Origin: an uncultured Gammaproteobacteria bacterium
GTDB lineage: Bacteria; Cyanobacteriota; Vampirovibrionia; LMEP-6097
Direction of reading: 5' to 3'
Assembly: GCA_964512985.1 (NCBI GenBank)
Contig: CAZELI010000011.1
Location: 383 to 64,382, forward strand
DNA: 64,000 nt
The notes beneath the pieces are model-generated. The model was not told the DNA's origin, made no database searches, and worked only from the letters and a program-made list of their open reading frames with translations. The translations under genes and the position numbers were made by a program. How positions within the stretch are numbered: position 1 is the stretch's first letter; each line of letters opens with the position of its first letter. Positions 1,554-57,203 of this stretch are shown piece after piece.

Positions 1554-1631
1554 ATTATACCCTAAATAAAGTATACTTTTATATATCCTTATAAAGGAAT
1601 TAGCGCTTTAAAGTATATAAAAGTATACTTT
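1554..1631. promoter_or_regulatory. hipBA promoter/operator region
   Basis: The minus-strand -10 TATAAT (1554-1559) lies 6 nt from the ATG at 1547. The perfect 12-bp palindrome AAAGTATACTTT occurs at 1568-1579 and 1620-1631. The inverted repeat ATCCTT-N3-AAGGAA is at 1585-1599. Confidence 0.6.
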
Positions 1632-2592
1632 ATTCCTCTGGACTAAAGCCCATATACTTAGCAACTGGCCAGTAAACGCAATAGAAACTTCCTAATAGAG
1701 CAAAGATCACTAGTAGAGTGAAGACCATGTTCAATGCAGTAAAGATACTGATCAGAAGTGCTTGCTCTCCGATGTTGAAGCGTAAGATTGGAATAGCGCG
1801 GTAGACGGAGAGACCGAAATTCAGGATAGATTTAATAATCGTCATCCTGAGGGAGGGCGAAGCCCGACCGTCAGGATCCACTGCTAATGGCTGGATTGCG
1901 ACGTCGTCCGTCTTCACTTCGTTTCGACGGACTCCTCGCAATGACGATACTGAGTCTTCATGCGACGCCTGACTTCCTCTTTGCACAGCGGGCTCTAGCT
2001 TCATATCCTGATTCACGTAATAATCAATGAGCAATACTGTAAACATCGCAATCATTGCCAGAGGCCAGATTAGCCAAGTCGCTACTGGAAAGGATTTGAT
2101 AAACATCATCTGAAAATCAACGGGTAATTTAAAACTACCATTAACTCCAAGAAAAAATTCTATAACAGAACTCACACGTGAAAAATTCAAAAAGAAAAAC
2201 TCTTCATGACTAGTAAAAAATCCCCAGGCTAATGAGAAGAAATAAATAAAATCCTTAACCCTGTCACTGACCCGATCTAACCAAGCACCAAGCTTAGAGA
2301 ACTGTTGGCGATAGCGCGCCAGTTGCCCGTCCATGCAATCTACAGCAAATGAAAGCTGCACCAAAGCCGCTCCTATAATGAGGTGTAAATGATCACCACA
2401 AGCAAAGCACCATGCCGCAATCATCCCAATTAAAAAAGAATTAACGGTAATAAGGTTTGGACTAATCCAGGATATATCACAAATCGGCTCAAGCAAACGA
2501 TTAGCCAGAGGACCAGAGAAAATACTTGCCCACCAGCCGTCTTTTTGTTTAATAGCAGAACGAAGTTTTAATTTTTGAGTAGGAGATAGCAC
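1630..2592 (-). CDS. CDP-alcohol phosphatidyltransferase family protein with an in-frame repeat-element insertion
   Basis: Carries the motif DCMDGQLARYRQQFSKLGAWLDRVSDRVKD (D-x2-DG-x2-AR...G-x3-D-x3-D) and is polytopic. About aa 216-251 (SSLRGVRRNEVKTDDVAIQPLAVDPDGRASPSLRMT) are encoded by the repeat element at 1840-1946. Confidence 0.8.
   Translation of the reverse strand: MLSPTQKLKLRSAIKQKDGWWASIFSGPLANRLLEPICDISWISPNLITVNSFLIGMIAAWCFACGDHLHLIIGAALVQLSFAVDCMDGQLARYRQQFSKLGAWLDRVSDRVKDFIYFFSLAWGFFTSHEEFFFLNFSRVSSVIEFFLGVNGSFKLPVDFQMMFIKSFPVATWLIWPLAMIAMFTVLLIDYYVNQDMKLEPAVQRGSQASHEDSVSSLRGVRRNEVKTDDVAIQPLAVDPDGRASPSLRMTIIKSILNFGLSVYRAIPILRFNIGEQALLISIFTALNMVFTLLVIFALLGSFYCVYWPVAKYMGFSPEE
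1840..1946. mobile_element. REPIN/MITE-like doublet located inside a CDS
   Basis: Module CGTCATCCTGAGGGAGGGCGAAGCCCGACCGTCAGGATCCAC (1840-1881) plus inverted module CTGGATTGCGACGTC...TCCTCGCAATGACG (1891-1946). Same family as 4094-4204, 26095-26203, 54399-54485 and 57086-57198. Confidence 0.85.
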
Positions 2593-2631: not shown

Positions 2632-3048
2632 TTACTTCCTCTCTAAAGCTAATTCTTTTAATCTCTGTTGAGTTAAAACTTCATCAACGACATCAGAAAG
2701 CATCACCGCTAGCTCATGAGCCGCTAGATATCGCTCAATCATTAGCTTAAAACCACCGCTCTTAATTCTGTCTATCAGGGGTTTAACATCATTTATTTCC
2801 TGGATAATATCGTTCTTAGTACGAATATCATCATTATTAGAACTTATTTTAGTTTTTCCACTAGTTTTTAAAAATTCCTTTAAAGCATCAGACGAAAGCG
2901 CTTCTCGAAGCATTTTCTCTATATGATGCGCATTCACTTCTCTTGCTTTACCAGATAAATAAGTAGGTATCTCATTGGCACGTCTCATTGCTTTGAGCGC
3001 AGCAATTAAGGCTTGCGAAAATTCATCAATTTCTGTCGGTTTATCCAT
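2632..3048 (-). CDS. Hypothetical protein; start probably at M62 of the 199-aa track ORF
   Basis: The long ORF would overlap the thrB start by 68 nt. The internal start MDKPTEIDEF avoids the overlap. No motif recognised. Confidence 0.4.
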   Translation of the reverse strand: MDKPTEIDEFSQALIAALKAMRRANEIPTYLSGKAREVNAHHIEKMLREALSSDALKEFLKTSGKTKISSNNDDIRTKNDIIQEINDVKPLIDRIKSGGFKLMIERYLAAHELAVMLSDVVDEVLTQQRLKELALERK

Positions 3049-3163
3049 AGCAACTAAATAGTTTCTACCACAGGAAACATAAGATTTAACAGGAGCAATT
3101 AGCGGTCCGCAGAAAATGTTATTAATAAGCTGAGCAATTAGTGGATTATGGTATAAAATACTG

Positions 3164-4081
3164 ATGGTGAGCCCATTTATAGTAAAAGTCCCAGCAAGTA
3201 CTTCGAATCTAGGTCCCGGCTTTGATGTCATTGGGCTGGCGTTAAATCTCTACAATAGCTATAGTTTTGAGCTTAGCAATCAAGGAAACTCTGAGCTTAG
3301 CTATAGCTCTAATGTAAGTTCTAGTGAAATCCCCTATAGCAAAGATAATCTAGTTTATCGGGCTTTTGATTATGTTTTTCGTAAAGAGTCTAAAGAAACC
3401 CCTTCCGTCAAAATTCATTTTCAAGCTGATATACCTACCACTGGTGGCTTTGGGTCAAGCAGCACCGCAATTCTTGCTGGCTTAATGGCAGCTAACAAAA
3501 TACTTGGCGAACCTTACGACACTAATAAGATTCTTAAAATAGGAACTCAACTCGACGGACATCCAGATAATATAACCCCTGCCATGCTTGGCGGTTTAAT
3601 AGTCTGTGTCTACGCTGATGCGCAGCATCATTACGTTAAATTAGCTTGGGACCAAAACTTATTTTTTGTGGCAGTGACACCAGACTTTAAGGTGCCCACA
3701 GCAGATGCAAGAGCGGTATTGCCTTCGCATGTAGAGTTTCAAGATGCGGTATTTAATCTCGGTTACAGTAGTTTATTAATCGCAGCACTTGCAACAAAAA
3801 ACACCGAAGTCCTCAAGCAATGCTTCAAAGACAGACTACATCAGCATTACAGAGCGAAGCTCGTTCCTGGAATGCAATGCGTGCTTGATACTGGAGTAGA
3901 AGCAGGAGCTATTGGCACTATGCTCTCTGGAGCTGGATCAACTTTAATTGCAGTAGTAGATAATGATAAAACTGCTGAGACGGTAGCGCTTGCAATGCAA
4001 TCTGCTTGGATGCAAAGCGGTGTCAAATGTGACTATAGGTTCTTGAGAGCCGTGGATACAGGCGCAAGTATTGTTTCGTAG
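3164..4081 (+). CDS. thrB: Homoserine kinase
   Basis: N-terminal VKVPASTSNLGPGFD and the GHMP kinase motif PTTGGFGSSSTAILAG. Length 305 aa. Confidence 0.9.
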   Translation: MVSPFIVKVPASTSNLGPGFDVIGLALNLYNSYSFELSNQGNSELSYSSNVSSSEIPYSKDNLVYRAFDYVFRKESKETPSVKIHFQADIPTTGGFGSSSTAILAGLMAANKILGEPYDTNKILKIGTQLDGHPDNITPAMLGGLIVCVYADAQHHYVKLAWDQNLFFVAVTPDFKVPTADARAVLPSHVEFQDAVFNLGYSSLLIAALATKNTEVLKQCFKDRLHQHYRAKLVPGMQCVLDTGVEAGAIGTMLSGAGSTLIAVVDNDKTAETVALAMQSAWMQSGVKCDYRFLRAVDTGASIVS

Positions 4082-4093
4082 ATTTAAGGATTT

Positions 4094-4204
4094 CGTCATC
4101 CTGAGGGAGGGCGAAGCCCGACCGTAAGGATCCACTTTTATTAATAGATTATTCGTAGCAGTGGATCCTTACGTCGCAACCTACGGTTGCTCCTCAGGAT
4201 GACG
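4094..4204. mobile_element. REPIN/MITE-like palindromic doublet
   Basis: Terminal inverted repeats CGTCATCCTGAGG / CCTCAGGATGACG. Inner GGATCCAC...GTGGATCC with a 25-nt spacer. Sits 13 nt after the thrB stop. It is the reverse-orientation counterpart of 57086-57198. Confidence 0.9.
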
Positions 4205-4226
4205 GAAAGCAATATATAATATATAG

Positions 4227-5664: not shown

Positions 5665-6672
5665 GTGCCTGTCAAAGAACTAACATCAATCAAAATTGGA
5701 GACCTAACTCTAAATGGCTGTGTCTACATACCTCCCATGGCAGGGGTTACGGATATAGTTTATAGAAAGCTTTGTAGAGAGTTTGATCCAGATGTATTAC
5801 TCTCGACAGAGATGCTTAGCTCTAAATCTCTTACTTACGCTCACAAGAATTCTAAAACTCATAGACATACAGCGCGCATGGATATACCTGAAGCTGATCC
5901 ATTAACTGGTATCCAATTATTTGGGCATGAACCAGAGGTAATGGCAGAAGCCGCCCAGATCGCAGAAGAATCTGGAGCTAAATTTATCGATATAAATATG
6001 GGCTGTCCTGTATCTAAGATAGTGAAAGGGCAAGATGGAGCAGCACTGATGCGTGAACCTGATCTAGCTTGTGACATCGTGAGGGCAGTAATCGCAGCCA
6101 CTAAATTACCTGTCACCGTTAAAACTCGCTTAGGCTGGTGCGCAGAGAGCATGCATACTCCTGAACTCGCTAAGAGGTTTGAAGGATTAGGCGTACAAGC
6201 CATGACTATTCATGGCAGAACCAGATCTCAATTATATAGTGGTCAAGCTAACTGGGACCAAATTGCGCAAGTCGTCTCAGCAGTGAAGATTCCAATATTT
6301 GCTAATGGTGATATCAAAGATCTAAATGATGCTAAGAAAATATTAGAAGTTACTGGCGCTGTAGGCATGGCGATAGCGCGCGCGACAATGGGCAAGCCTT
6401 GGTTCTCCAAGCAAGTGAATCATTATATTCGCACTAGTGAGATTCTTCCAGAACCCAATATCCAAGAGCGATTGGCATTAGCCTTAAAACATTGTCAAAT
6501 GTTAGTAGAGTATAAGGGACTAGAAATAGGTATCAGAGAAAGTCGTAGACATATAGTGAGCTATACTGCTGGAATGAAAGGCGCCGCCAAAATCCGCCCT
6601 CTTATACTTGCTGTTAATTCAGTAGCAGAAGCCGAGAAATTAATTGATGAGCTTTTGGTTTTGAATTCTTAA
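5665..6672 (+). CDS. dusB: tRNA-dihydrouridine synthase
   Basis: Motifs PPMAGVTD, IDINMGCPVSKIVK, TIHGRTR. GTG start. TATAAT at 5651-5656 lies 8 nt upstream. Confidence 0.88.
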   Translation: MPVKELTSIKIGDLTLNGCVYIPPMAGVTDIVYRKLCREFDPDVLLSTEMLSSKSLTYAHKNSKTHRHTARMDIPEADPLTGIQLFGHEPEVMAEAAQIAEESGAKFIDINMGCPVSKIVKGQDGAALMREPDLACDIVRAVIAATKLPVTVKTRLGWCAESMHTPELAKRFEGLGVQAMTIHGRTRSQLYSGQANWDQIAQVVSAVKIPIFANGDIKDLNDAKKILEVTGAVGMAIARATMGKPWFSKQVNHYIRTSEILPEPNIQERLALALKHCQMLVEYKGLEIGIRESRRHIVSYTAGMKGAAKIRPLILAVNSVAEAEKLIDELLVLNS

Positions 6673-6694
6673 CCTAGAGGCAATGGTCAACCGA

Positions 6695-6825
6695 TACCCG
6701 TAATCCGTCATTGCAACGTAGACACTAGTGCAGACCGACACCCGTTAGCCGTCATCGCGAGGAGTCCGTCGTAACGCAGTGAAGACGGACTCCTCGCAAT
6801 GACGGACTACGGGTGCTGGTTTACT
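6695..6825. mobile_element. Composite or degenerate cluster of the same repeat family (TTGCGAGG subtype)
   Basis: Long hairpin CGTCATCGCGAGGAGTCCGTC-loop-GACGGACTCCTCGCAATGACG (6750-6814). It is nested in the outer inverted repeat ACCCGTAATCCGTCATTGC (about 6697-6715) / GCAATGACGGACTACGGGT (about 6805-6823). Lies between the convergent dusB and methyltransferase genes. Confidence 0.75.
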
Positions 6826-8053
6826 ACAAATCACCCCAATAATCCATATCACGTGCTTTCTTCAAAGCATCCTGGTAAGCCGGTTCATCACCAATTAATT
6901 TATAATACCTAGCCCAAAGCTCATAAGTGAAAGCATTATAGGGAGAGAGTTCTGTAAGCTCTTCCAAAATCAACTTCAGCTCATTAAGATTAGAATCCGA
7001 GAATTCATCTGCTTGCTTCTCTAATTCTAAATATCTCAAGATCAAATTATGGGCAATGAAAAGCTCATCATAGATAGGTCTTAAGCATTCTAGTAAGGCT
7101 TGCTGCTTAGTAACCAACAATCTAGAAATGTTCTTGGTATCATTTTGCACCATGCCAATATAACCCAGCCTTCGCAAAGAATCTAATAAGAAACTATTAT
7201 CAACTTCATGAGCAATAGAATTCCCCACTACTGCAAAGCGAAAGTTCCTCTCACGATTAGGAATTATATCCACCGACAATAAGAAACCATTCTCATCTAG
7301 TAAGCTCATTAAATTATCACAAGCCTTAAGTGCATCATAAGAATAAAAAATCTCTTTCTGGTAATCTGAATAGTATTCTAGTAAGTAAGATTTATAATGC
7401 TTCTCTGTATCGCCCTGCTCATCCCAGTTATAGGCTTGCCATTTCTCTTCATGCTCTAACCTTGCTTGCAAGAAATCATTCTCCAAGATATCTGGTTCTT
7501 GATCTTCTCTCTTACTAGTAGATATATATAATTCTTCTAAAGTATCTGACTTAGACCATCGTAAAATAGTCATAGGTAAAGCATCTAATACATAATGCAA
7601 GAATATTGCCCTAATATTACTCAATGGAATAGAGTCACTGACTATATTGAAGACTAGTAATTTATAATCTTGTCCTTCTTGAAACTCGTCCAAGATTCCT
7701 CTGGATCGTATCTCTTCTAAATTATGCTTAGAATAATCCGTAATTAATAAAGTAAGCTTCTCTAAGATCCCAAGCTCTCTTGCAGCAAGGAGAAAGTGCC
7801 GAGAGAATCTTCCTGAACCAGCGCCGCATTCTAGTACATTAACCTTAGTAGCACTAGGATATGCTTCTAGATTAGCTTGCACTAACTTAGCCAGCGCCAT
7901 TGCACTTTGGTAATTAGTACCAATCTTATGCGGAATGATTTTAGGAGCCTTATTACTCCATGCCATAATACCTTTAGCCTGGTAATATTGGTCGCTTATT
8001 TGCCATATAATCGATTCATTATAAGGCTTGAAATTTTCATCTAAATATGGCAT
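6824..8053 (-). CDS. Class I SAM-dependent methyltransferase-like protein with a C-terminal helical (TPR-like) region
   Basis: Motif I LECGAGSGRFS. The start ATG directly abuts the stop of the upstream ORF (TAAATG). Confidence 0.55.
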   Translation of the reverse strand: MPYLDENFKPYNESIIWQISDQYYQAKGIMAWSNKAPKIIPHKIGTNYQSAMALAKLVQANLEAYPSATKVNVLECGAGSGRFSRHFLLAARELGILEKLTLLITDYSKHNLEEIRSRGILDEFQEGQDYKLLVFNIVSDSIPLSNIRAIFLHYVLDALPMTILRWSKSDTLEELYISTSKREDQEPDILENDFLQARLEHEEKWQAYNWDEQGDTEKHYKSYLLEYYSDYQKEIFYSYDALKACDNLMSLLDENGFLLSVDIIPNRERNFRFAVVGNSIAHEVDNSFLLDSLRRLGYIGMVQNDTKNISRLLVTKQQALLECLRPIYDELFIAHNLILRYLELEKQADEFSDSNLNELKLILEELTELSPYNAFTYELWARYYKLIGDEPAYQDALKKARDMDYWGDL

Positions 8054-9109
8054 TTATAAATAACTTGCAATATCAATATCAGTATTAGCAATGATCTCTT
8101 GAGTAACAGGATTTAGAAGCATTAATTGATATTTATCACTTTTCTTTACAGAGCCTAGACTAAAGGCTAGCTTAATTACATTAGAATTTTTTACTGAAAC
8201 AGAATCTAGTCCAGCATTGGACAATAGAGGATTATTAAATATTGGTAGCACATGCCTATCAGAACTCAGTATAAAATCCCCCATGAAAAGCTCACGGGGA
8301 CTATTATTGGCAAGTTCTATATCCACCAGCATAAACTCACCATAGTCTCTAGATTTAAATTTAGAAATTTGTTTCACATGAATATCAATGCCCATAAGCT
8401 TAGCGCTAATAGGTTCAAATTCTTGCGACATTATCGGCAGTTCTTCAAGAAACGCAAAATCAGAATCAAGCTTAAGATTAATAGGATCAAAGCCACTACT
8501 AACTAGCTCCTTACCCTTAGTCTTAACAACACCAGCCAAGCCCAACCCCAATCCTAGACCAGCTCCTACCATGGTAGTAATACCACTAGTTGCCATAGCA
8601 GCACCAATACCACCATATTGTATAGAATCCAGAGCTCCAACTAAAGTGCTAGCAGTAATAGTACTACTATGCTTAATTAATTTTCTTGCTAGAGTTTTGA
8701 TGTTACTTGGTTGATCATCATCTTGCATACTTTCCTTAGAACTAAAATCTGCACTAACTTTTACCGTAGAACCATCTGGAAACATGAGTTCGTTGACATG
8801 AATTTTTAAGCTAGCACCGATACCTAAGGACTTGGGTTTATTAAGCTGAGTAATTTCTCCTAATAAACGAGTTCTTTCTGGAATCTTAAAAATCTGACAA
8901 GCATTCTTGGAAAGAAACGCACTAAAGTAATCACCCGTAAGACTAAGCTCAGTATCCACTATAGTCTCAGGTACTACTTGAATATTTAATCCTTTGGTTT
9001 CAAAAGCCTGAATCTGCGCTTGGTAAACAGGGGTAATACTCATTACTTTTAGCGGCGAAACTAATATAAAAGAATTTATTAATAAAAAGATATGTACAAA
9101 TTTTCTCAC
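8054..9109 (-). CDS. Secreted hypothetical protein with a glycine-zipper segment
   Basis: N-terminal signal-like FVHIFLLINSFILVSPLKVMS. Central GIGAAMATSGITTMVGAGLGLGLGLAGV. GTG start. Confidence 0.5.
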   Translation of the reverse strand: MRKFVHIFLLINSFILVSPLKVMSITPVYQAQIQAFETKGLNIQVVPETIVDTELSLTGDYFSAFLSKNACQIFKIPERTRLLGEITQLNKPKSLGIGASLKIHVNELMFPDGSTVKVSADFSSKESMQDDDQPSNIKTLARKLIKHSSTITASTLVGALDSIQYGGIGAAMATSGITTMVGAGLGLGLGLAGVVKTKGKELVSSGFDPINLKLDSDFAFLEELPIMSQEFEPISAKLMGIDIHVKQISKFKSRDYGEFMLVDIELANNSPRELFMGDFILSSDRHVLPIFNNPLLSNAGLDSVSVKNSNVIKLAFSLGSVKKSDKYQLMLLNPVTQEIIANTDIDIASYL

Positions 9110-9172
9110 GAGCTCTTATGCTAGTATTTTATCCGCAATAGCGATATTGCGTAAGGGGGGACTTCATGGCGC

Positions 9173-9249
9173 GGAGGCGTAGCTCAGTTGGTTAGAGCAC
9201 CTGTCTGTCACGCAGGGGGTCGAGGGTTCAAGTCCCTTCGTCTCCGCCA
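9173..9249 (+). tRNA. tRNA-Asp (anticodon GTC), CCA encoded
   Basis: Hand-folded cloverleaf. Acceptor stem GGAGGCG/CGTCTCC. Anticodon stem CCTGT/GCAGG with loop CTGTCAC. T arm GAGGG-TTCAAGT-CCCTT. 3' GCCA. Confidence 0.9.
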
Positions 9250-9260
9250 TTTAAAGAAAT

Positions 9261-9291
9261 AAAAAGGTAGCCTTAAGGCTACCTTTTTATT
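9261..9291 (+). terminator. Rho-independent terminator after tRNA-Asp
   Basis: AAAAAGGTAGCC-TTAA-GGCTACCTTTTT, a perfect 12-bp stem followed by a T-run. Confidence 0.8.
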
Positions 9292-9673
9292 TCTCTGGGT
9301 GTTGATCAAGGGATTTGTACTTTTAGCCAGGAATCTGCGATTCCGGGTCGAGGGTTAGCAAGGAAGGTCTAAACGACCTTCCTTGCACTCTTAAATGAAA
9401 CCAGAGATTCAACCACAAAATAAATTCTGACAAATGTCTAATGTCCAGCTACGACCTAAAATCTTCATGACAACATTCTCTAAGGAGAAAATAACCGGCG
9501 ACATTACTTTCAGGAGCAGGCATTCGATCGCCACTAAGCCTAGAGGTCGTTAGCATAAATACATCCAGTAATATCACACAAGGCTCTGGTAGTTTCTTCT
9601 CCCTATCTAGTAATTTCCATATACACCATTTAGTTGATTTAACACTGATTAAGGAATTGGGAATTGAGTGGTT

Positions 9674-12196
9674 ATGAGAAGAATTATTAACCTTAGTATT
9701 GCTTTATTATTAGCTACGACGATAACGCAAACTTATGTCTCAGCCATTACCTTAGTACCTAATAAAACGAACTTTCGGTTCAATGGTTCAGCTAACTCTC
9801 TAAGCTTCAAGGTGAGCCTAAGTGACGATATCCCTTCCTTAACTGGCTCGGGGTTAATTAGCGCAAAGCTCAAACTCAATTCATCACTCTTCACTACCAA
9901 TCTTACTAACAATACTATCTCTATACCTTATACTGACGGTGTTATAGGTGAAAGCCCAGAGATCACTATTAGTCTCAAGAATCCAACTATCACTAAATCA
10001 TCCTCATCACCTTTTAGCGTTAAATTCTCTGGATCCCAACGCAAGAAATTGAAGTTAGCTAATTACTCTGACACTTTTAATATAGATGCTAGTCCTATAC
10101 AGGTCTCTGGTCGTGTAACGATCCCTGAAGATAGTGCTTTAAGCTTCAAAGCTAGAACAACTAAATTATTGAAAGCCCGCACTATTGCACCGTTTAATAC
10201 TGATAATCCAGATGGTGTCTTAGTGCAATTAATGCCTATTGATCCAGCTACTGGTGAGGCCAGTGGGGCAGCCATAGCAGAAGCTATAACAGATAGTGAC
10301 GGTAACTATAATCTTGAAATGCCTGTAGAAGCAGGATTTGGTACAGATTATGCTTTAGTAGTGGAAGGTGATGATGGTGAGAATATGCATGCACCATTAT
10401 TTGGTGATTCTGTAAACATTACACCTGCCACTGAAACTTTATTTCAATTAACTCAAGATGCTGTTCAAGATCCTACTAGTATTGGTTTAGGTGCTGACGA
10501 AGAAATATCATTTGAGAATTTTACTGATACGGAAGCTTTAGGTCTTAATAACCAGCTAGAAGAATTAACTCCTATCTACGAATCAACACTTTCTGCATCA
10601 ATACAGAGTTTAAAAGATACTTATGCAAGCTTCCTTAATAATATGCTTGGAGCCTCCGCCGACGATGATGCTAGTGGTATCTCTACAAATATTGGAGAAG
10701 TAGCTAAAGATATGGCGGGAGACTACCATGTAAGTTTCTTTGATACCTCTATTAGTTCGGAGCAAAGACTTATGATTTCAGTGGAATTAGCTGGAGCTAG
10801 AATGTCTAAACCAGATGAAGTCGGTGCACTTTCTGTGTATCCGTTCCCTTCATTCTCTAGTCAAGCATCTAGCCAAGTTGCTCGTAATGATAGAGGACCA
10901 GACCAGGGACAAGGACCAGACCAGGGACAAGGACCAGACCAGGGACAAGGACCAGACCAGGGACAAGGACCAGATCAAGGACAAGGACCAGACCAGGGAC
11001 AAGGACCAAGTGAAGGTGAACCGTCAGCATCAAGCGCCCGTGTCATCAAGCCTCTTGAGAATACTAGTTGCTATGACGTAGAAGCATACTCTGAAGCCGC
11101 ACACGAAGTAAGGGGTACTCAAGATGGTAGTTTCTACATGACAGTTGATGCTAATCGTATTATTAACTTTGCAGAACCCGCTTCAGAAGAGACTTATAGC
11201 ACTCCTGAAGGACAGCAAGGATCTTTTAGAAGACAACCTAGCGTTATGAATATGATACCTGTTGGTGATGGTATGTTTTTATCAAGTATGAGCTCAACTT
11301 CTAGTAACTTTATGGATGGTAGCTTACAATCAACTGAGTATGAAGCGGGCTTTGCCAGTATCATCAAGAAATCATCGCTAACAGCTTCAGATCTTACTGG
11401 TAATTATGGTATGGTTGGTCTTGGCTATAAAATAGGTGCAGAAGATTACGGTACGATTGCATTCATTGGAGATTTAAGCTTTAGTTCAAGTCAGGTGAAT
11501 TTTAATCTGAATATGAAGTCTATCAATGTATCAGCAGATAGTTGCGAAGCATCGTCTTTTACATTAACGGAAGAAAGTACCGAGGAGCTTGGTTCGGCCA
11601 GTCTTGAGTTTGACAACGGTAGGCTTAATGTTGAGTTAGAGGGAGAAGAGTCTAATTCAGAAACTTTATTTACTGGTTTTGCTAGACCTGACGCTAAAGT
11701 ATTGTCGTTAATATATGCTAGTGATAGTGGCGCACAGGGTTCACGTCAAGACCATGAAGGTCGTTCGAGAAACGTTATTTCAACTGCAGATAGGCAATTA
11801 ATGATTGGCGTCAAGAAGCCAACTACTTTACTTAATCTATCAGGTAAATCTTACAGAATCTTATCAATGAACTTTGGCTTTAACGAACAGGGTGGTAGGA
11901 CTATTAAACAAGGTGAACTTGGTACTTTAAGTTTTAGTGACGGCACACTCAGCGTTAGTGGTTTCTCTAGAGATGTATTCACTAAAGATTCAGCTGATAG
12001 TGAGAGTATAACTGCTTCCAATTCTGTAACGGTAGGCACTGCTATAAGTTACACACTTGATGCTCAGGGTAAGATTAATTTCACTCTTGGTAACGATCAG
12101 CTCACTGGTTATGTAGCTGATGATGCAAGCTTAATAGTCCTATCTTCAGATGAAGATTCTTCACTTGGTATCTATTTTGCAATATTAAATCAATAA
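9674..12196 (+). CDS. Large secreted protein with a GPDQGQ hexapeptide repeat tract
   Basis: Signal peptide MRRIINLSIALLLATTITQTYVSA. A CarboxypepD_reg-like stretch (VSGRVTIPED...DSDGNYNLEMP). The track start at 9668 is GTG; ATG at 9674 preceded by AAGGAA is more likely. Confidence 0.6.
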   Translation: MRRIINLSIALLLATTITQTYVSAITLVPNKTNFRFNGSANSLSFKVSLSDDIPSLTGSGLISAKLKLNSSLFTTNLTNNTISIPYTDGVIGESPEITISLKNPTITKSSSSPFSVKFSGSQRKKLKLANYSDTFNIDASPIQVSGRVTIPEDSALSFKARTTKLLKARTIAPFNTDNPDGVLVQLMPIDPATGEASGAAIAEAITDSDGNYNLEMPVEAGFGTDYALVVEGDDGENMHAPLFGDSVNITPATETLFQLTQDAVQDPTSIGLGADEEISFENFTDTEALGLNNQLEELTPIYESTLSASIQSLKDTYASFLNNMLGASADDDASGISTNIGEVAKDMAGDYHVSFFDTSISSEQRLMISVELAGARMSKPDEVGALSVYPFPSFSSQASSQVARNDRGPDQGQGPDQGQGPDQGQGPDQGQGPDQGQGPDQGQGPSEGEPSASSARVIKPLENTSCYDVEAYSEAAHEVRGTQDGSFYMTVDANRIINFAEPASEETYSTPEGQQGSFRRQPSVMNMIPVGDGMFLSSMSSTSSNFMDGSLQSTEYEAGFASIIKKSSLTASDLTGNYGMVGLGYKIGAEDYGTIAFIGDLSFSSSQVNFNLNMKSINVSADSCEASSFTLTEESTEELGSASLEFDNGRLNVELEGEESNSETLFTGFARPDAKVLSLIYASDSGAQGSRQDHEGRSRNVISTADRQLMIGVKKPTTLLNLSGKSYRILSMNFGFNEQGGRTIKQGELGTLSFSDGTLSVSGFSRDVFTKDSADSESITASNSVTVGTAISYTLDAQGKINFTLGNDQLTGYVADDASLIVLSSDEDSSLGIYFAILNQ
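10895..11020 (+). repeat. 18-bp coding tandem repeat (GGACCAGACCAGGGACAA), six copies plus one degenerate
   Basis: Five copies are identical, one has 2 substitutions (10967-10984), and a degenerate seventh sits at 11003-11020. Encodes (GPDQGQ)6-GPSEGE. Confidence 0.9.
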
Positions 12197-12255: not shown

Positions 12256-13209
12256 ATGAGTACCCCTCAAAATCCTACAATTAATTACTCCTATCGAATC
12301 GCCATCATTGTTTTATACATAGCAATATTTCTTCTGCTTCCAAGTTACTTTTTTAAGAATGTCATTTGCGCTAGCACGAGCGTAATATTAAGAGACAAGG
12401 CATTCTATGAATCAATCTCAGAAATCCAAATCCTAGTCGTAGGTGATTCGCATAATATGAAGGTTTTGCCTACTAATACTAAGCTAGGTATTTTTAATTT
12501 CGCAACTGGGGGCGAGAACTATATGCAAACTTATTACAAGCTTAAAAAAGCTCTCCAAGAAAAAAATCAAATTAAAACCATTATCATCCCTTTAAACATT
12601 AATAGCTTTGCTAAGAACGATTTCTCCGAGAAGTCTCATTTATATTATTGGAATAATTATATCGACTATATAGAACTTGCTAAGCTTGACTCTGACTACT
12701 TTTCACATATCAAGAATTTTACCCTAGGCACTTTCTTTCCTTATATTGGTAAATCAAAAGTGATAACTAATTATTTCAGTGGCAAGAAACTAGACGAAGA
12801 GAAGATGCTGAAAAACATTGAAACTAAAAACAAAGATTTCTCTAAATTACCTAAAACAGAACAAACTGCTAAAGCCAAGAAACGTGTTCAAGAACTATTC
12901 CCTAAAGGAAACTACAATAAAACTTTAGAAATATATTTTCATAAATTAATTGAACTATGCAAAGCTAAAAACCTAGATATTGTAATTCTCACACTACCAA
13001 TGACCGATGCGTTTATGGAGACTTATAAATCTAAGTATGATACTCAATGGTTTGAGAATAAAAGAAATGAAGTCTACGTTATGTATCCAGAATTTAGGTA
13101 TATAGACCTTCGAACTAAACTAGCTTCTAGATACTTTAGTGACTCTGATCACCTGAATCTTGATGGTACTAAGATGGCAAATTACTATATTCTAAGAGAT
13201 TTACCGTAA
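12256..13209 (+). CDS. Membrane-anchored SGNH/GDSL-like hydrolase-fold protein
   Basis: N-terminal TM helix. Block I-like VVGDSH and a C-terminal DSDHLN (DxxH). Confidence 0.45.
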   Translation: MSTPQNPTINYSYRIAIIVLYIAIFLLLPSYFFKNVICASTSVILRDKAFYESISEIQILVVGDSHNMKVLPTNTKLGIFNFATGGENYMQTYYKLKKALQEKNQIKTIIIPLNINSFAKNDFSEKSHLYYWNNYIDYIELAKLDSDYFSHIKNFTLGTFFPYIGKSKVITNYFSGKKLDEEKMLKNIETKNKDFSKLPKTEQTAKAKKRVQELFPKGNYNKTLEIYFHKLIELCKAKNLDIVILTLPMTDAFMETYKSKYDTQWFENKRNEVYVMYPEFRYIDLRTKLASRYFSDSDHLNLDGTKMANYYILRDLP

Positions 13210-13211
13210 TT

Positions 13212-14273
13212 TCAAGTCACAGATTGACAAAGCTCTCCGTGTTTCATATGCGAAAACTCTTTCAATGAGACACGTTCCTTACCCATTAATTCTTTAAGTT
13301 TTTGATATATTCTTCTGGTTTGTTGTATTGGTATATATTCATCTAACTTACTTGCAAAGATCTTTACAGAATGAACTTTAGCAGCTAGATAATGTAAATT
13401 ATCATAGAGACTGAGAATAGGGTTTTTGAATAACTTAGCAATCAATTTTCTAAAAGGGTATAAAAGCCCAGCAGTAGTGGGTTCAACCTGCCTAGGTATA
13501 ATGCGATATCGACCAATAGATACATCTGTAATATCTTTCAAAGAGCTAAAAGGAGCAATCATTGTAACATTACCAAACTCTTCCTTAGCTTGGCTATATA
13601 ATTCATATCTACGAGCAAACATATTAGTAAGAATATCGCAGCCCAGTGAACTAGCCACAAAGTTTATACGTTCAGTTTCCCATCTCTTATGCTTAGTAAG
13701 AAATTCAATCGCAGCATCTACATCGTCAGCAAGAGCCTCTTGATATGGAGTACCTTTGTTACTTTCTTCTCCTCTATAACTCAGCATACAAATAGCTTTG
13801 CCATTGAAATAGGATCTAATCGCTGGAACCGCTAAATTACCTATACTAGTATTGCGACCATGCAGAAACATATCGACACTAAATCTAGGCAGAGCTTTAG
13901 ACCATGGCGGCTGAGCATATAAGATTTGAATTGATCCTCTACCATCGCCAGTATTATACTTAAGAGTTGCTAATTCTATATTCCTGATACCATTCTGTCG
14001 AAGATACCTTATAGCACCATGCAGACCTTGATCCTTAAGTAATTTTTCTTGGGTTAAACGATTAATATCAGGAAAATCAAAAGTCTTACGACGTAAAGTT
14101 TCATCATGCATATTACCAGGATGAAATTTCAAATCAGCATATTTTTTCTTAGGATCACCACCAGGATGAACAAGATACTTTCGCTTACAGGGTTCGTAAG
14201 TTTGTATTTTTACATTTTCAGTTATTGTAGACAAAGTATTCATTAGTAAATTTGACACCCTAGATAATAACAT
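13212..14273 (-). CDS. Alpha/beta hydrolase (S33/ABHD-like)
   Basis: SYRGEESNKG region and nucleophile-elbow-like ASSLG. Paralog-like to 14799-15647. The start may instead be at M11. Confidence 0.55.
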   Translation of the reverse strand: MLLSRVSNLLMNTLSTITENVKIQTYEPCKRKYLVHPGGDPKKKYADLKFHPGNMHDETLRRKTFDFPDINRLTQEKLLKDQGLHGAIRYLRQNGIRNIELATLKYNTGDGRGSIQILYAQPPWSKALPRFSVDMFLHGRNTSIGNLAVPAIRSYFNGKAICMLSYRGEESNKGTPYQEALADDVDAAIEFLTKHKRWETERINFVASSLGCDILTNMFARRYELYSQAKEEFGNVTMIAPFSSLKDITDVSIGRYRIIPRQVEPTTAGLLYPFRKLIAKLFKNPILSLYDNLHYLAAKVHSVKIFASKLDEYIPIQQTRRIYQKLKELMGKERVSLKEFSHMKHGELCQSVT

Positions 14274-17833: not shown

Positions 17834-19114
17834 TTATAGTTCTATTTTGTTCAGCAGAAAATAATAAGCTGGAATGAATCTTATTCTTTTACCATCAATT
17901 ATTTCTTCAGTGAACTTGGATCTGGTTATAATTACACCGCCTGTCAAACCATACGCTTGACTAGCTTCCAAAATTCCACCCACCTCTCTATCATAAAGTT
18001 CTTCATCTTCTAAATTAGAGTCCGTAACATTGATCACTGTCACAGGATTAGCACCTTCTACTAGAACAAAATCTAATTCAAAGTTATTTTGGTGGTAATA
18101 AATATTTTTATAGCCACGTCTTCTAAGCTCTATATAGATAGCATTTTCTAGAAGTTTACCAGAATCTAAGGAATGATAAAAAGCATTAGCTTGTCTCAAA
18201 CCCGTATCAATACAGTAAACCTTTTGAGGATTTCTTGCTTGCACTTTAAGATTGCGGTCATATTTCTTTACAAAGAACAGTAAAAATGCCATTTCGCAAT
18301 AATAAGCATAATCTTGTGCCGTGACTACATCTAGACCAAAAGCCTTTTTGATACTAGTAAAACTGTGCTTTGAACTAATATTGCTAAGCAAATATTGAAT
18401 CATTTTAATTAAAGATCCCACATCTCTAATCTGAAATCGCTGAACCAAATCTTTATAGACAATATCATTCAAATACTCTCTCGCTAATAAAGTTTGCGTA
18501 TCATGACCTTTCTGCAAAACTTTCTTTGGAAAACCACCGGTTTGTAGATATTTATCCAAAGCTTTTAGATAGTCGTCATCTTTCTTACAAGTTTTCTTAG
18601 TAAAAAATAAAAATTCTTTAAATGAAAGTGGCCAAATATCAGTCTCAATACATCTTCCAGTCAAAGAAGTTGCAATCTCTGAACTTAGCATCTTAGCTGA
18701 GCTACCAGTTACAATCAAAAAATAACTTTGTGTATCAATTATTTTTCTAGCGTAACGTTCCCAATATGGAATATTATGAACTTCATCCAGAATTAATATC
18801 TCAGGTTTTTTACCATAAATTTTCTTATAAAGCTGTGGCAATGTTTCTAAAAGCATTACATTATTATTTTCAATAAAATAAGGATCTTCAAAATTTATAT
18901 AACAAATCTCTTTAAATTTAGTTTTAGCATTTAATATTGCAATTGAAGTTTTACCACAACGTCTTACTCCTATATAAGCTGCTGCTAAAGATTTATCAAA
19001 TTTACTAGGAACATAACTATCTCGTGCAATAGAATTTTCATCTCGTAACCAATCATTCCAGAATTTGACTATATCCAGTAGGTATATATTTTCCATATGA
19101 TCTGCTTCTTGCAT
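17834..19114 (-). CDS. AAA-ATPase (AAA_14/DUF4143-like), copy 1
   Basis: Walker A GVRRCGKTS and Walker B LILDEVH. The C-terminal ELDFVLVEG...INVT looks like a degenerate nuclease-like motif. Start placed at MQEADHMENIY because TATAAT (19121-19126) lies 6 nt upstream; the track start at 19159 falls inside the repeats. Confidence 0.7.
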   Translation of the reverse strand: MQEADHMENIYLLDIVKFWNDWLRDENSIARDSYVPSKFDKSLAAAYIGVRRCGKTSIAILNAKTKFKEICYINFEDPYFIENNNVMLLETLPQLYKKIYGKKPEILILDEVHNIPYWERYARKIIDTQSYFLIVTGSSAKMLSSEIATSLTGRCIETDIWPLSFKEFLFFTKKTCKKDDDYLKALDKYLQTGGFPKKVLQKGHDTQTLLAREYLNDIVYKDLVQRFQIRDVGSLIKMIQYLLSNISSKHSFTSIKKAFGLDVVTAQDYAYYCEMAFLLFFVKKYDRNLKVQARNPQKVYCIDTGLRQANAFYHSLDSGKLLENAIYIELRRRGYKNIYYHQNNFELDFVLVEGANPVTVINVTDSNLEDEELYDREVGGILEASQAYGLTGGVIITRSKFTEEIIDGKRIRFIPAYYFLLNKIEL

Positions 19115-19117
19115 TTG

Positions 19118-19187
19118 TTGATTATAATCAATATACCATAGTTTGTTGATTATAATCAATATTATAAGGTTTATTGACTATAATCGA
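19118..19187. promoter_or_regulatory. Three 28-bp-spaced copies of a 14-bp palindrome containing TATAAT
   Basis: TTGATTATAATCAA at 19118-19131 and 19146-19159 (both perfect), and TTGACTATAATCGA at 19174-19187. Confidence 0.7.
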
Positions 19188-19252
19188 CAAAATCCACAAA
19201 GGCTAAGTCTACCTTAGTACACTATATGCTATTACCATTTAATCCAATTGAC

Positions 19253-20527: not shown

Positions 20528-21319
20528 CTATATATTTATATTCGACTGGATCACGACGTCGCGCCTACGGCGCTCCTCGTGATGACGAAAATTATTATTA
20601 ATATACTTCCCAAAAACCAAAATCGCTGGAGACTGTATCCCACTATTAATCATATCTTGGGCTAAATTTCCCAAAGTACTAACAACAATTTTCTCATCAT
20701 CGAGAGTGCCATTATGAATAGCAATCACTGGAAGGTTTATATCAAGATACTGTTTTAAGCCATCAATGATTTTTACAACAGTACTAAGCCCCATATAGAC
20801 TACGACCGTCGCGCCAGTACCGAGAATCCTTGCCCAGTTCGAGATCTTCTCATCATTAGGTTGATGTCCAGTAACCAAAGTCACTGAATCACTACAATCT
20901 CTAAGAGTCAGTGCTATACCGCGCGCTACGGGTATAGCAAGACCACTGGTTAAACCAGGTATCACTCTATAGTCATAGCCATGCTTCTTAGCTACTTCTA
21001 ACTCTTCTACACCTCTAGCGAAGATAAAAGGATCTCCACCTTTAAGCCTGAGAACATGCTTGTTTAATCTAAGCTGCTCTAATATAAGTGCATTAATTTC
21101 TTCTTGGCTTATGGATTGATGTCCTTTACGCTTACCGACAAAAATCAACTCTGGAAGTTTTTCTAAACCTTGAAAAGCAAGCTGGAATATTTGTTGATTA
21201 ACTAAACTATCATAGAGAATGATATCCGCTCTCTGAAGCTCTTTAAGAGCTTTAATAGTGATCAATTCAGGATCACCAGGTCCAGCTCCGACAAGACTAA
21301 GTAAGGCAGTTCTCCCCAT
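20528..21319 (-). CDS. cobA: Uroporphyrinogen-III C-methyltransferase (SUMT)
   Basis: GAGPGDPELITIKALKELQRADIILYD. The last approximately 14 codons (HEERRRRDVVIQ...) are encoded by a solo repeat module. Confidence 0.85.
   Translation of the reverse strand: MGRTALLSLVGAGPGDPELITIKALKELQRADIILYDSLVNQQIFQLAFQGLEKLPELIFVGKRKGHQSISQEEINALILEQLRLNKHVLRLKGGDPFIFARGVEELEVAKKHGYDYRVIPGLTSGLAIPVARGIALTLRDCSDSVTLVTGHQPNDEKISNWARILGTGATVVVYMGLSTVVKIIDGLKQYLDINLPVIAIHNGTLDDEKIVVSTLGNLAQDMINSGIQSPAILVFGKYINNNFRHHEERRRRDVVIQSNINI
20545..20587. repeat. Solo (singleton) hairpin module of the repeat family
   Basis: CTGGATCACGACGTCGCGCCTACGGCGCTCCTCGTGATGACG. Stems ATCACGA/TCGTGAT and GCGCC/GGCGC. Confidence 0.8.
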
Positions 21320-21921
21320 TATTCTAGTCTCTCCCTAAACACTCTATCTGTATACCAACGTATTAATTTAGACCTGCGTACTACATTATTCTCGCCAGTG
21401 ATTTTAGTTTGAACTTTTTCTCTAAACTCATGAATAATATCTACTAGCGATAAATATTTCACTCTAATAACATCTTCCAGGTCCTTTCTTATTTTCTGAG
21501 CCACAGAAGGCGCTTTACCATTGGTACTGATAGCTAGCTTAATATCACCAGCTTCAACAATACTCGGCACATAGAAATCACAATACTCAGCTTGATCGAC
21601 AGAATTCACGAGAATGTTTTGGTCTCTACATCTATTAGCGATGCTGTTATTTAATTCAGGAAGATTAGTCGCAGCTATCACCATGTAATAATCCTTCTCA
21701 TCCCCAAAGTCATAGTCTCTCTCTATAAACTTGATACTTCTAATATTAGGGAACTCACCACGACAAGCACGTATCTCATCAATAATAGTAGGAGCAATTA
21801 TCGTTATATAAGCATCTGTATTAAGCAGCCCAACAAGCTTCTGCAAGGCGATCATGCCACCACCTACTATAAGAACTTTCTTCTCTGTGAGCTTAAGGAA
21901 TATTGGGTAAAGCTTATTCAT
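21319..21921 (-). CDS. sirC: Precorrin-2 dehydrogenase / sirohydrochlorin ferrochelatase (SirC/CysG N-terminal type)
   Basis: NAD-binding KVLIVGGGMIALQKL. Size and position next to cobA. Confidence 0.75.
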   Translation of the reverse strand: MNKLYPIFLKLTEKKVLIVGGGMIALQKLVGLLNTDAYITIIAPTIIDEIRACRGEFPNIRSIKFIERDYDFGDEKDYYMVIAATNLPELNNSIANRCRDQNILVNSVDQAEYCDFYVPSIVEAGDIKLAISTNGKAPSVAQKIRKDLEDVIRVKYLSLVDIIHEFREKVQTKITGENNVVRRSKLIRWYTDRVFRERLE

Positions 21922-22679
21922 ATAGTAAACTCCCCGCCCTGCTTCATTTCAGAATCTTGAATATGCAGACCACACTCTATCTTATCCTTACCAGCCCAAC
22001 GCCCCTTACGATCAGTTCCAGGACTAGTACAAGGCTCGCAACCAATACTATCGTAACCCTCGTCTAAGAGAGGATTATAAGGAACCTTATTCTCATGAAT
22101 AAACTTCCAGATATTAGATTTAGTCCAATGTATTAGTGGATTGATCTTGCCAAGCTTAAACTTAGAATCATATTCAAATGCTAGTGCACTAGCACGATAG
22201 GCTGTCTGCTCGCGTCTTATAGAAGTGATCCAGGCATATTTACCTTGCAATAAATTAGCAAGCGGTACTAATTTTCTCATATAGCAACACTGGTCTGGGT
22301 CTATCTTATAGAGATCTTTACCGTATTTAGTATCTTGCTCTAGGACACTGAGTTTAGGTTCTATCATTTGGATACTTAATTTATAACGATCTTCTAGTCT
22401 TTGTTTCAATTCTAGAGTTTCCTTAAATTGATAACCAGTATCCAAATTAGCAATTATAGGCATAGTGGCTTTAGGTTGTAGATCTGCAATCATCTTTAAT
22501 AATACGCAACCCTCAGCCCCAAATGCTGTCAAAAAAACTATCTCTCCAAACTTTGATAACTCAGACAAACTATAGTCCAGAATCTCCATTGCAGTAGCAT
22601 TCTCAAACTGGTCGCCAAGCTTATTCCACTCTGACGGCTCCTTAATTAAGTGCACCCTGAATTGCCTCCACACCGACAC
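21918..22679 (-). CDS. cysH: Adenylyl-sulfate (APS)/PAPS reductase, Fe-S type
   Basis: The CC (DQCCYMRK) plus CxxC (GCEPCT) cysteines are typical of APS reductases, and there is a C-terminal ECGLH. The track start overlaps sir by 38 nt, so the true start is uncertain. Confidence 0.8.
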   Translation of the reverse strand: MSVWRQFRVHLIKEPSEWNKLGDQFENATAMEILDYSLSELSKFGEIVFLTAFGAEGCVLLKMIADLQPKATMPIIANLDTGYQFKETLELKQRLEDRYKLSIQMIEPKLSVLEQDTKYGKDLYKIDPDQCCYMRKLVPLANLLQGKYAWITSIRREQTAYRASALAFEYDSKFKLGKINPLIHWTKSNIWKFIHENKVPYNPLLDEGYDSIGCEPCTSPGTDRKGRWAGKDKIECGLHIQDSEMKQGGEFTI

Positions 22680-24240: not shown

Positions 24241-24257
24241 GCTTTAATTATAGCGTA

Positions 24258-26051: not shown

Positions 26052-26094
26052 TTTCGTCATCCTAAGTATAGGCATCAACTTAAGCCGAAAAGCT

Positions 26095-26203
26095 CGTCAT
26101 CCTGAGGAGGAGCCGAAGGCGACGACGTCAGGATCCACTACTAAGAAACATCATGAATAGTGGATCCTGACGTCGCAACCTACGGTTGCTCCTCAGGATG
26201 ACG
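26095..26203. mobile_element. REPIN/MITE-like palindromic doublet
   Basis: CGTCATCCTGAGGAGGAGCCGAAGGCGACGACGTCAGGATCCAC, a 21-nt spacer, then GTGGATCCTGACGTCGCAACCTACGGTTGCTCCTCAGGATGACG. Ends 6 nt from the cysN stop. A 12-nt fragment CGTCATCCTAAG is at 26055-26066. Confidence 0.9.
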
Positions 26204-26208
26204 AGACC

Positions 26209-27507: not shown

Positions 27508-27508
27508 T

Positions 27509-27548
27509 TTAGAAATACCCTTCCTTCTTTTTCTGTTCCATTGATAAG
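27509..27548. repeat. Copy 2 of the duplicated cysD 3' end
   Basis: Aligns with 28191-28230. 30 of 33 positions are identical in the core (plus strand ATACCCTTCCTTCTT..CCATTGAT). Confidence 0.8.
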
Positions 27549-28191: not shown

Positions 28192-28230
28192 CAAAAGTAC
28201 CCTTCCTTCTTCTTCTGCTCCATTGATGAG
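28191..28230. repeat. Copy 1 of the duplicated segment (the authentic cysD 3' end)
   Basis: See 27509-27548. Both copies encode [10 protein letters not shown] followed by a stop. Confidence 0.8.
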
Positions 28231-54322: not shown

Positions 54323-54398
54323 AATCTTCCCATAATTTATATTTTTTCACTCTCTAGTAATTAGGCAATACTGTTATCTTGCGAAGAATTCGGGTCTT

Positions 54399-54485
54399 CG
54401 TCATCACGAGGAGCACCGCAGGTGCGACGTAGTGATCCAGTCTGGATTGCGACGTCGCTCACTTTGTGAGCTCCTCGCAATGACG
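54399..54485. mobile_element. REPIN/MITE-like doublet with a 1-nt spacer
   Basis: CGTCATCACGAGGAGCACCGCAGGTGCGACGTAGTGATCCAG, then T, then CTGGATTGCGACGTCGCTCACTTTGTGAGCTCCTCGCAATGACG. Confidence 0.9.
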
Positions 54486-54531
54486 GCATTTTTTTTACCT
54501 TACTCGTCCCAATACAGTATAATTTTTCGAT

Positions 54532-57043: not shown

Positions 57044-57085
57044 TTTTATATTATAAGCTCAAAATGCTTATAGGTCTTATTTCCT

Positions 57086-57198
57086 CGTCATCCTGAGGAG
57101 CAACCGTAGGTTGCGACGTAAGGATCCACTATTTCGAGATAAATTTCTAATTAAGAGTGGATCCTTACGGTCGGGCTTCGCCCTCCCTCAGGATGACG
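57086..57198. mobile_element. REPIN/MITE-like palindromic doublet
   Basis: CGTCATCCTGAGGAGCAACCGTAGGTTGCGACGTAAGGATCCAC, a 27-nt spacer, then GTGGATCCTTACGGTCGGGCTTCGCCCTCCCTCAGGATGACG. Has the same two modules as 4094-4204 in opposite order. Confidence 0.9.
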
Positions 57199-57203
57199 AG
57201 GGA

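Follow-up and report, generated by a model that had tools for sequence, protein, structure and literature searches.

The CDP-alcohol phosphatidyltransferase gene and the doublet within it

The window, which is the whole 64-kb stretch of DNA that was analysed, contains near its beginning a gene for a CDP-alcohol phosphatidyltransferase whose open reading frame (ORF) runs through a doublet of palindromic repeats without interruption. The gene occupies positions 1630..2592 of the minus strand, starts with GTG and encodes a protein of 320 amino acids (aa). The protein matches the Pfam family PF01066 (CDP-OH_P_transf) with E = 1.4e-12. Its catalytic signature, D85-x2-D88-G-x2-A-R-x8-G102-x3-D106-x3-D110 (positions 2263..2340, minus strand), is intact in the translation, and the corresponding columns are invariant in the alignment of the orthologues. 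The C-terminal block PILRFNIGEQ...WP is likewise invariant among the aligned orthologues. The Pfam match, the location of the signature on transmembrane helices (TM) 2 and 3 and the six-TM fold place the protein in the PF01066 family. Within the family it does not reach the level required for any of the profiled enzymes. The scores lie below every NCBIfam equivalog cut-off (70 bits compared with the required 180 for the best profile, archin_ph_syn, and 21 compared with 109 for pgsA), and an assignment as PgsA, PIP synthase or AIP synthase was therefore rejected. The description of the enzyme as essential-type, given in the original prediction, is for the same reason no more than putative.

The in-gene element is made up of two modules of different types, which meet at their tails, and the insert peptide, SSLRGVRRNEVKTDDVAIQPLAVDPDGRASPSLRMT, corresponds to residues 216-251 (positions 1840-1947). 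The module termed F1 (1888..1947, minus strand) has the orientation of the gene, a stem ATTGCGA/TCGCAAT (TGCG type) and a long inner hairpin, which resembles that of another copy at 6751-6803. It encodes SSLRGVRRNEVKTDDVAIQP (residues 216-235), scores 51.3 bits in cmsearch (E = 4e-13), and its DNA folds with an energy of -14.2 kcal/mol. The module termed R (1839..1884, plus strand) is opposite to the gene and has a stem ATCCTGA/TCAGGAT (CCTG type) enclosing the inner hairpin GGGC-GAA-GCCC. It encodes VDPDGRASPSLRMT (residues 238-251), scores 54.9 bits in cmsearch and matches the copies at 4093 and 57199 in all but one position. The spacer between the two tails was placed at 1883..1887 using the sequence and the alignment. 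The peptides SSLRGVRRNEVK and ASPSLR were named as markers by which expression of the insert could be recognised.

A model of the enzyme was built with AlphaFold2 using 24 homologues and has an overall predicted local distance difference test score (pLDDT) of 80.5 and a predicted template modelling score (pTM) of 0.74. In this model residues 195-247 have no secondary structure, the pLDDT being below 50 for residues 197-244, and this stretch, predicted to be disordered, is situated between the helices formed by residues 172-194 and 248-266. The ORF, the signature and the model thus agree with the original prediction, made from the letters of the sequence, that an in-frame palindromic repeat occupies a loop between helices, 3' of a catalytic motif that is intact. 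Among known structures the model is closest to AF2299 (PDB 4o6n; 24% identity, Foldseek E = 4e-8, profile E = 7e-21), and the loop that carries the insert therefore joins TM4 and TM5. The AF2299-type fold has an N-in topology, and its active site is formed where TM2 and TM3 end on the cytoplasmic side. By analogy with this topology, the TM4-TM5 loop should face the cytoplasm. The host protein has the signature motif and the predicted fold in common with the AF2299-type CDP-alcohol phosphotransferases (4o6m, 4o6n), but differs from these structures in having an additional segment (residues 129-171) as well as the repeat-bearing TM4-TM5 loop.

The ratio of non-synonymous to synonymous substitutions (dN/dS) is 0.06-0.12 over 263 loop-flanking codons, including the part 3' of the insert, in comparisons with six orthologues for which DNA was available. 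Because of these low values the gene is considered, on the evidence of its sequence, to be functional, with purifying selection acting both before and after the insert. The 69 C-terminal residues downstream of the insert are conserved and retain their invariant motifs in all orthologues. An identical 320-aa protein was called on four contigs, including one in a separate ENA assembly at 13.6x coverage.

The window comes from a genome of low GC content (37%) that belongs, to judge by the record titles of the orthologues, to the Caenarcaniphilales (Vampirovibrionia/Melainabacteria). The orthologues come from metagenome-assembled genomes (MAGs) labelled as Caenarcanales, Caenarcaniphilales, Melainabacteria, Vampirovibrionia or Cyanobacteriota. 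Third Party Annotation (TPA) MAGs titled "uncultured Gammaproteobacteria bacterium" (loci L001, L002, L003, L005, L014, L016-L018 and L029) have orthologues that cluster with those of Caenarcaniphilales/Melainabacteria, and these titles are probably mislabels. On the downstream side, the CDP-alcohol phosphatidyltransferase gene is directly adjoined by the toxin-antitoxin genes for HipA and an HTH (HipB-like) protein at 1-1547. The HipBA pair is syntenic in L033 and was not found at that position in L036, L038 and L059. On the upstream side there is a small conserved gene at 2632-3231 (minus strand), syntenic in all close relatives, which has no Pfam or NCBIfam match. Its longest ORF, of 199 aa, overlaps thrB (3164-4081, plus strand). 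Its orthologues were called at 137-148 aa, and its true start is probably near 3045.

The repeat family in the window and in other genes

A motif scan and a repeat search found 13 modules of the same family at seven sites in the window, five of the sites being intergenic. The module consensus is YCGTCAT-NNNN-GAGGAG-[inner stem-loop]-CGACGT-N'N'N'N'-ATCCA(C/G)T, 44-60 nucleotides (nt) long, and its fold comprises an outer stem of 7 bp, followed by an internal loop and by an inner hairpin, which is variable. The module DNA is GC-rich (52-59%) compared with the window as a whole (37%). In an alignment of 17 modules, 90% of the stem cells are paired, compared with 65% in shuffles and 20-44% when the partners are slid. 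Compensatory changes occur in nine of the 13 stem pairs, for instance CCTG/CAGG, TGCG/CGCA and CACG/CGTG. The covariance model built from this alignment retrieves 11 full modules in the window with E-values of 1e-13 to 1e-19, while two further half-modules make up the palindrome at 6751-6803. A 39-mer from the in-gene element recurs with one mismatch at 4095 and 57159, and had no match in 100 shuffles. A search of the whole window at the Rfam gathering thresholds found no match to the modules, the only hit being a tRNA.

At five of the seven sites two inverted modules are joined tail to tail as a doublet, about 106-116 nt long. The doublets fold as long hairpins or cruciforms with energies of -28 to -48 kcal/mol (z = -4.7 to -12.3), and the sequence flanking the modules sometimes prolongs the palindrome. 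One intergenic tail-to-tail doublet, at 4093..4205 between thrB and an S41 peptidase gene, is missing at the syntenic site in L033 and L059. A second, at 57085..57199, has the same pair of subtypes in inverted order. These two are copies of one composite, which includes part of the spacer. Two further intergenic doublets were identified by the repeat search, folding and cmsearch, as was that at 57085..57199. One is located upstream of trpC (26094..26204), and the other, in which the tails overlap, separates the genes for citrate synthase and an amino-acid permease (54398..54486). The site at 6686..6824 is a composite palindrome, missing at the syntenic site in L059, within which two module 5' arms flank a single inner hairpin at 6751-6803, giving a derivative of the a-palindrome-a' form.

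The remaining site, at 20543..20588 (minus strand), has a solo module that forms the C-terminal tail of CobA (gene 20528-21319, minus strand), as recognised by cmsearch and by where the protein profiles end. The Pfam and NCBIfam profiles of CobA end at residues 220-247 of 263, and the tail, FRHHEERRRRDVVIQSNINI*, begins at F244. Sixteen codons of the tail derive from the module, so that the earlier proposal of a repeat-derived end of cobA holds. A companion proposal, that the longest trpC ORF is extended at its N-terminus by a fragment of the repeat, is plausible. The sequence CTTAGGATGACGA at 26054-26066, inside this ORF, matches the module end at 11 of 13 positions, and the indole-3-glycerol phosphate synthase (IGPS) profile starts only at residue 20 of the TTG-initiated frame. 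In-frame ATGs at 26075, 26060 and 26051 are candidate start codons, and the extension is probably spurious. The cobA gene belongs to a cluster for assimilatory sulfate reduction and sirohaem synthesis at 20528-29114 (cobA, a sirohaem synthase N-terminal domain, two PAPS-reductase-family genes, sulfite reductase and a CysN-like GTPase), which is interrupted by trpC and a module doublet.

A metagenome scan for the CCTG-type module gave 18 stretches, in which the covariance model finds 52 modules. Long open frames spanning modules were tested and then compared with Pfam. In-frame doublets were found in MurB, within its FAD_binding_4 domain (L056), and in an APH-family kinase (L048), and in-frame modules in IspG/GcpE (L043), a YgjP-like metallopeptidase (L046) and ThrB (L012). 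Roughly 10-15% of the sampled sites are intragenic. It is because of these five genes that the family can be described as similar in its behaviour to the Rickettsia palindromic elements (RPEs). In L056 (1449-3425, minus strand) a stop-free doublet also occupies the spacer between hemC and murB, where a single open frame of 659 codons runs across both genes and invites a false annotation as a gene fusion. Caution is called for in the annotation of these MAGs, in which tails derived from repeats, N-terminal extensions that are false and open frames that cross genes may be encountered.

Taken together, these results make it very probable that a mobile family of hairpins, resembling repetitive extragenic palindromic (REP) sequences, is tolerated in frame in the disordered loop of a functional gene.

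The TM4-TM5 loop in orthologues

The loop lies between the conserved sequences DYYVNQDMKLE and FGLxVY..PILRFNIGEQ and is hypervariable in length. In basal Melainabacteria, whose proteins have 236-246 aa, it is 29-35 aa long and has no repeat-like sequence, compared with 68 aa in the window. The short, module-free loop is confined to these basal organisms, and every close orthologue has some palindromic insert between TM4 and TM5. The original prediction had counted on orthologues that lack the insert to define its exact boundaries. The insertion is, however, neither unique nor private and recent, and no insert-free close orthologue defines it as a one-off event: every close orthologue has an insert, related loops carry members of the family and in-frame modules are also present in other genes.

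The loops of 12 orthologues were compared as DNA, and the modules in them are read in one reverse frame or in any of three forward frames. The closest relative, L033 (83% aa identity to the window), has one forward CCTG module, which is read as RHPEEDVVRRKDP. L001 (77%) has only a reverse CCTG module. L034 and L036 (75% and 73%) each have a forward TGCG module read as SLRG...RRGNP. The modules of L034 and L036, like those of L061, L062 and L063, have the orientation and the 5' reading frame of module F1. More distant orthologues have a forward CCAG module (L037, 64%, RHPEE...), a forward TGCG module with a long inner hairpin (L038, 62%, RHCEE...), a palindrome with two 5' arms (L003, 61%), decayed modules (L004 and L006, 54-60%) or a forward module (L014, 53%). 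The different frames and orientations give rise to unrelated peptides (SSLRG.., RHPEE.., VIAR.., ..LRMT). Peptides of the module type were recognised in the loops of about 27-31 of the 58 closest cluster representatives, as compared with one of 27 basal loops. Doublets are present in the loops of eight representatives (P0013, P0017, P0023, P0024, P0029, P0039, P0041 and P0058). The two close orthologues that lack a module have palindromes unrelated to the family in this loop. That of L005 (6593-6720) is a 128-nt palindromic element with 19-nt inverted ends, and that of L002 (1365-1442) is an imperfect palindrome with 34-nt arms. A search for further copies of these two elements in the loci examined found only the two arms of each.

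The positions of the modules within the loop are closely defined. In L034, L036, L061, L062 and L063, which span the clade, the distance from the 3' ATCC of the forward module to the Phe/Leu-Gly codons downstream is exactly 19 nt. In L001, L003 and the window the end of the reverse module precedes these codons by exactly 20 nt. No module other than that in the loop is present in the locus in L001, L033, L034, L036, L037 and L038, and in the 12-kb syntenic locus L059. Decayed relics of modules persist in the loops of L061 and L062, where the surrounding 36 kb is almost module-free. (In the P0044 genome, to which L061 belongs, the loop module is decayed and further modules are almost lacking; its CDP-alcohol phosphatidyltransferase orthologue is surrounded by four genes for DDE_Tnp_1 (IS4-like) transposases, at 6593-9985, 12443-13840 and 18635-19795 of L061.) L001 keeps the sequence CAATCCA, the tail of a forward module, just upstream of its reverse module, and its alignment fits an in-frame deletion of 87 nt from a doublet similar to that of the window. 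The stem type, orientation and frame of the modules differ even within the closest pair, the window and L033, for which the synonymous divergence (dS) is 0.54. Because of these differences, replacements of one module by another must have occurred. The forward module of the window is 11 nt longer than that of L034, while the spacer and the reverse module add 55 nt. Either addition by itself would shift the frame and only their sum, 66 nt, preserves it, for which reason the long forward module and the reverse module of the window's doublet probably arrived together as a unit.

We infer the order of events, the nature of the mobilising enzyme and the route of replacement as follows. A forward module would have entered the TM4-TM5 loop in an early ancestor of the clade. 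A second, inverted module would have been added later, giving the doublet, one half of which would afterwards have been deleted in some lineages such as that of L001, where the tail of the forward module is left. In other lineages (L033, L037 and L038) the resident module may have been replaced by other family members, in the other orientation or in another frame, either by gene conversion or by re-insertion adjoining the resident. The mobilising enzyme might have been a REP-associated tyrosine transposase (RAYT) or an IS200-like HUH transposase working on single-stranded hairpins. This account as a whole, of an ancient in-frame insertion and a loop that has been occupied ever since and remodelled in place, is the one that we favour and regard as probable.

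Several observations weigh against it. The orthology of the loop modules is judged from position and frame. Their sequence types differ (TGCG, CCTG and CCAG stems), so that independent site-specific insertions can also be envisaged. The neighbour-joining tree and the dS values give slightly different branching orders. All of the genomes are MAGs or metagenome contigs, known from their sequence alone. The sequences flanking the 13 modules revealed neither a target-site duplication nor a target motif. Furthermore, Pfam searches found no transposase domain in the 58 larger ORFs of the window and no recurrent transposase family in 112 ORFs of module-bearing metagenome contigs. A tblastn search of 570 kb in which YafM of E. 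coli served as the query gave no RAYT-like match, which is a weak negative. As no transposase was found, the mechanism of mobilisation is a matter of conjecture.

One alternative is that the family inserts frequently and nearly at random, the TM4-TM5 loop being just the single part of the gene in which an insertion is not lethal, so that the modules of different orthologues would represent independent hits with neither shared ancestry nor targeting. The differences in stem type, orientation and reading frame between close relatives are what would then be expected, as are the hits in other genes and the length variation and predicted disorder of the loop. The family has been active in the genome of the window, as intergenic doublets are missing from the syntenic sites of relatives, and the unrelated palindromes of L002 and L005 reside in the same loop. 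Independent hits do not readily explain why the junctions fall at the identical nucleotide, 19 nt from the conserved codons in five lineages and 20 nt in three, nor why the loop holds the sole module in the loci of six relatives despite hundreds of nearby, presumably tolerant intergenic bases. The persistence of decayed relics in genomes whose sampled 36 kb is almost module-free and the forward tail retained by L001 also argue for inheritance of the insert, and tolerance by itself appears rather unlikely as the full explanation. An artefact is far less credible still. A metagenome-assembled contig could have been mis-assembled at a repeat, repeats being prone to this, or the gene could be dead with an accidentally long ORF. 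Nevertheless, the same protein is found on four contigs including an independent assembly, its C-terminal residues are conserved in all orthologues, the flanks have the low dN/dS given above, and in-frame modules are found at the same place in orthologues from many independent assemblies. On the strength of dN/dS, of the conserved sequence that follows the insert and of the recurrence of the protein on independent contigs, pseudogenisation and mis-assembly were both rejected.

It is also conceivable that the insert has been co-opted, the hairpin (as mRNA or DNA) or the flexible peptide now having a function for which selection maintains it. Conceivable roles are the pausing of translation between TM4 and TM5, an effect on the stability of the mRNA and the binding of a protein. 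Such a function would accord with the occupancy of the site across the whole clade and with the conservation of the modules. Module R is identical at 45 of 45 nt to the loop module of L001 and L059, even though the identity is 82% over the flanks and 67% at third positions, with a dS of about 0.94. The probability of observing no change in 45 nt, even given the constraint on the gene as a whole, is of the order of 1e-7. In the same way, the forward-module arms of L034 and L036 are identical at 29 of 29 nt at a dS of 1.37, although the inner hairpins differ. The RNA of the insert region folds as a stable three-way junction; however, the z-score of the whole-region fold relative to shuffles is only -1.8. 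The conservation and covariation of the arms are also seen in intergenic copies, and are hence a property of the family and not of the locus. Moreover, the orthologues read their modules in at least four combinations of frame and orientation, producing unrelated peptides, the module has decayed in L061, L062 and L006, and a loop of 29-35 aa suffices for the enzyme of the basal relatives. Co-option is thus improbable. The identity of the modules could possibly be due to selection on the arms at the level of nucleic acid, to gene conversion from conserved donors or to re-insertion at the exact site.

As an extension of the favoured account of ancient insertion and remodelling, it may be proposed, tentatively, that the TM4-TM5 loop is a self-renewing landing pad, where the resident module attracts family members or is rewritten from them by gene conversion, so that the site stays occupied throughout the history of the clade although its content changes continually. 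If so, the arms would be held by selection at the nucleic acid level even inside a coding sequence, the hairpin family would be a standing generator of loop diversity in a conserved membrane enzyme, and the loop would provide an example of replicators similar to REPINs (REP doublets forming hairpins) that persist vertically inside a gene. The series of orthologues represents an unusually clear natural experiment, in which ancient occupancy, doublet formation, half-deletions and replacements would all have affected one loop, and in which one copy has been frozen at the nucleotide level while nearby synonymous sites are near saturation. The series can be used for studying how such elements target, persist in and reshape proteins.

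Other features of the window and comparison with known systems

Some further features of the window were noted. An ORF at 9668-12196 (plus strand) encodes 842 aa without a Pfam match and contains, at 10876-11037, about eight tandem copies of the 18-nt unit AGGACCAGACCAGGGACA, which encode a repeated hexapeptide. Three paralogous genes for AAA_14 + DUF4143 ATPases are found on the minus strand (17834-19159, 34223-35635 and 51574-52920). The first of these is preceded by an AT-rich palindrome (19114-19191), and L059 also has such a gene. Besides the HipBA pair, further toxin-antitoxin genes, for a YafQ-like toxin and a ParE-like toxin, are located at 31686-31973 and 45143-45442.

[quoted passage not shown] Such intragenic in-frame copies are known for ERIC, BOX, QMITE1 of Coxiella, the Anabaena MITEs and Nezha (PMC10969869). 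The ends of the doublets of the window are inverted repeats, but neither a duplication nor a parent insertion sequence (IS) was found here. A classical MITE has inverted repeats at its termini, is accompanied by target-site duplications and can be traced to a parent IS. The family does not fit the description of an IS-derived MITE, the flanks of all 13 modules being free of direct duplications.

RPEs are about 100-150 bp long, are specific to Rickettsia and have one conserved peptide per family (PMC10969869). The hairpin modules are likewise dispersed palindromic repeats that are tolerated in frame in housekeeping genes, several unrelated genes having been hit, and the inserted peptide likewise resides in a loop compatible with the fold. 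The unit described here is, in contrast, a hairpin of 44-60 nt, often in an inverted doublet of about 106-116 nt, and it is read in at least four combinations of frame and orientation instead of giving one conserved peptide. The host belongs to Vampirovibrionia and not to Rickettsia, and about 10-15% of the sampled module sites are intragenic, compared with nearly half for some RPE families. The family was therefore set apart from true RPEs on the basis of host, size and multi-frame reading, the comparison being with descriptions of RPEs. The earlier suggestion of RPE-like behaviour thus stands at the level of the family, given the in-frame modules in several genes, while membership among the RPEs does not. 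The accompanying statement that in-frame survival is rare outside Rickettsia was too strong. A review of 2024 describes in-frame fusions of MITEs with host ORFs as "not unusual", the RPEs standing out mainly by their frequency (PMC10969869).

The closest resemblance is to REPs and REPINs. REPINs are inverted doublets with a hairpin-forming spacer, they have a-palindrome-a' derivatives and they cause no target duplication (PMC3337134). The modules of the window are, like REPs, short imperfect palindromes with conserved flanking arms and are mostly extragenic. They also form inverted doublets with a variable spacer that fold strongly, as one long hairpin, they have derivatives of the a-palindrome-a' form and arms conserved across species, and no target duplication accompanies them. 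They differ in that they repeatedly survive in frame inside genes and in that the halves of a doublet are often of different subtypes. REPs are extragenic by definition, and elements of REP/REPIN architecture are as a rule regarded as strictly extragenic. REPs typically go with a cognate gene for a RAYT (HUH/Y1 transposase) that the repeats flank. Neither a RAYT nor any other HUH transposase was found in the DNA examined. We found no relevant description in the literature searched of palindromic or REP repeats in Caenarcaniphilales or Melainabacteria, or of the module sequence. The best explanation is that the family consists of non-autonomous hairpin elements of the REP/REPIN kind that can be tolerated in frame in disordered loops. 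The survival in frame of palindromic repeats, in the style of the RPEs, would thereby be extended to Vampirovibrionia, the non-photosynthetic sister group of Cyanobacteria, and linked to elements having the architecture of REPs and REPINs.

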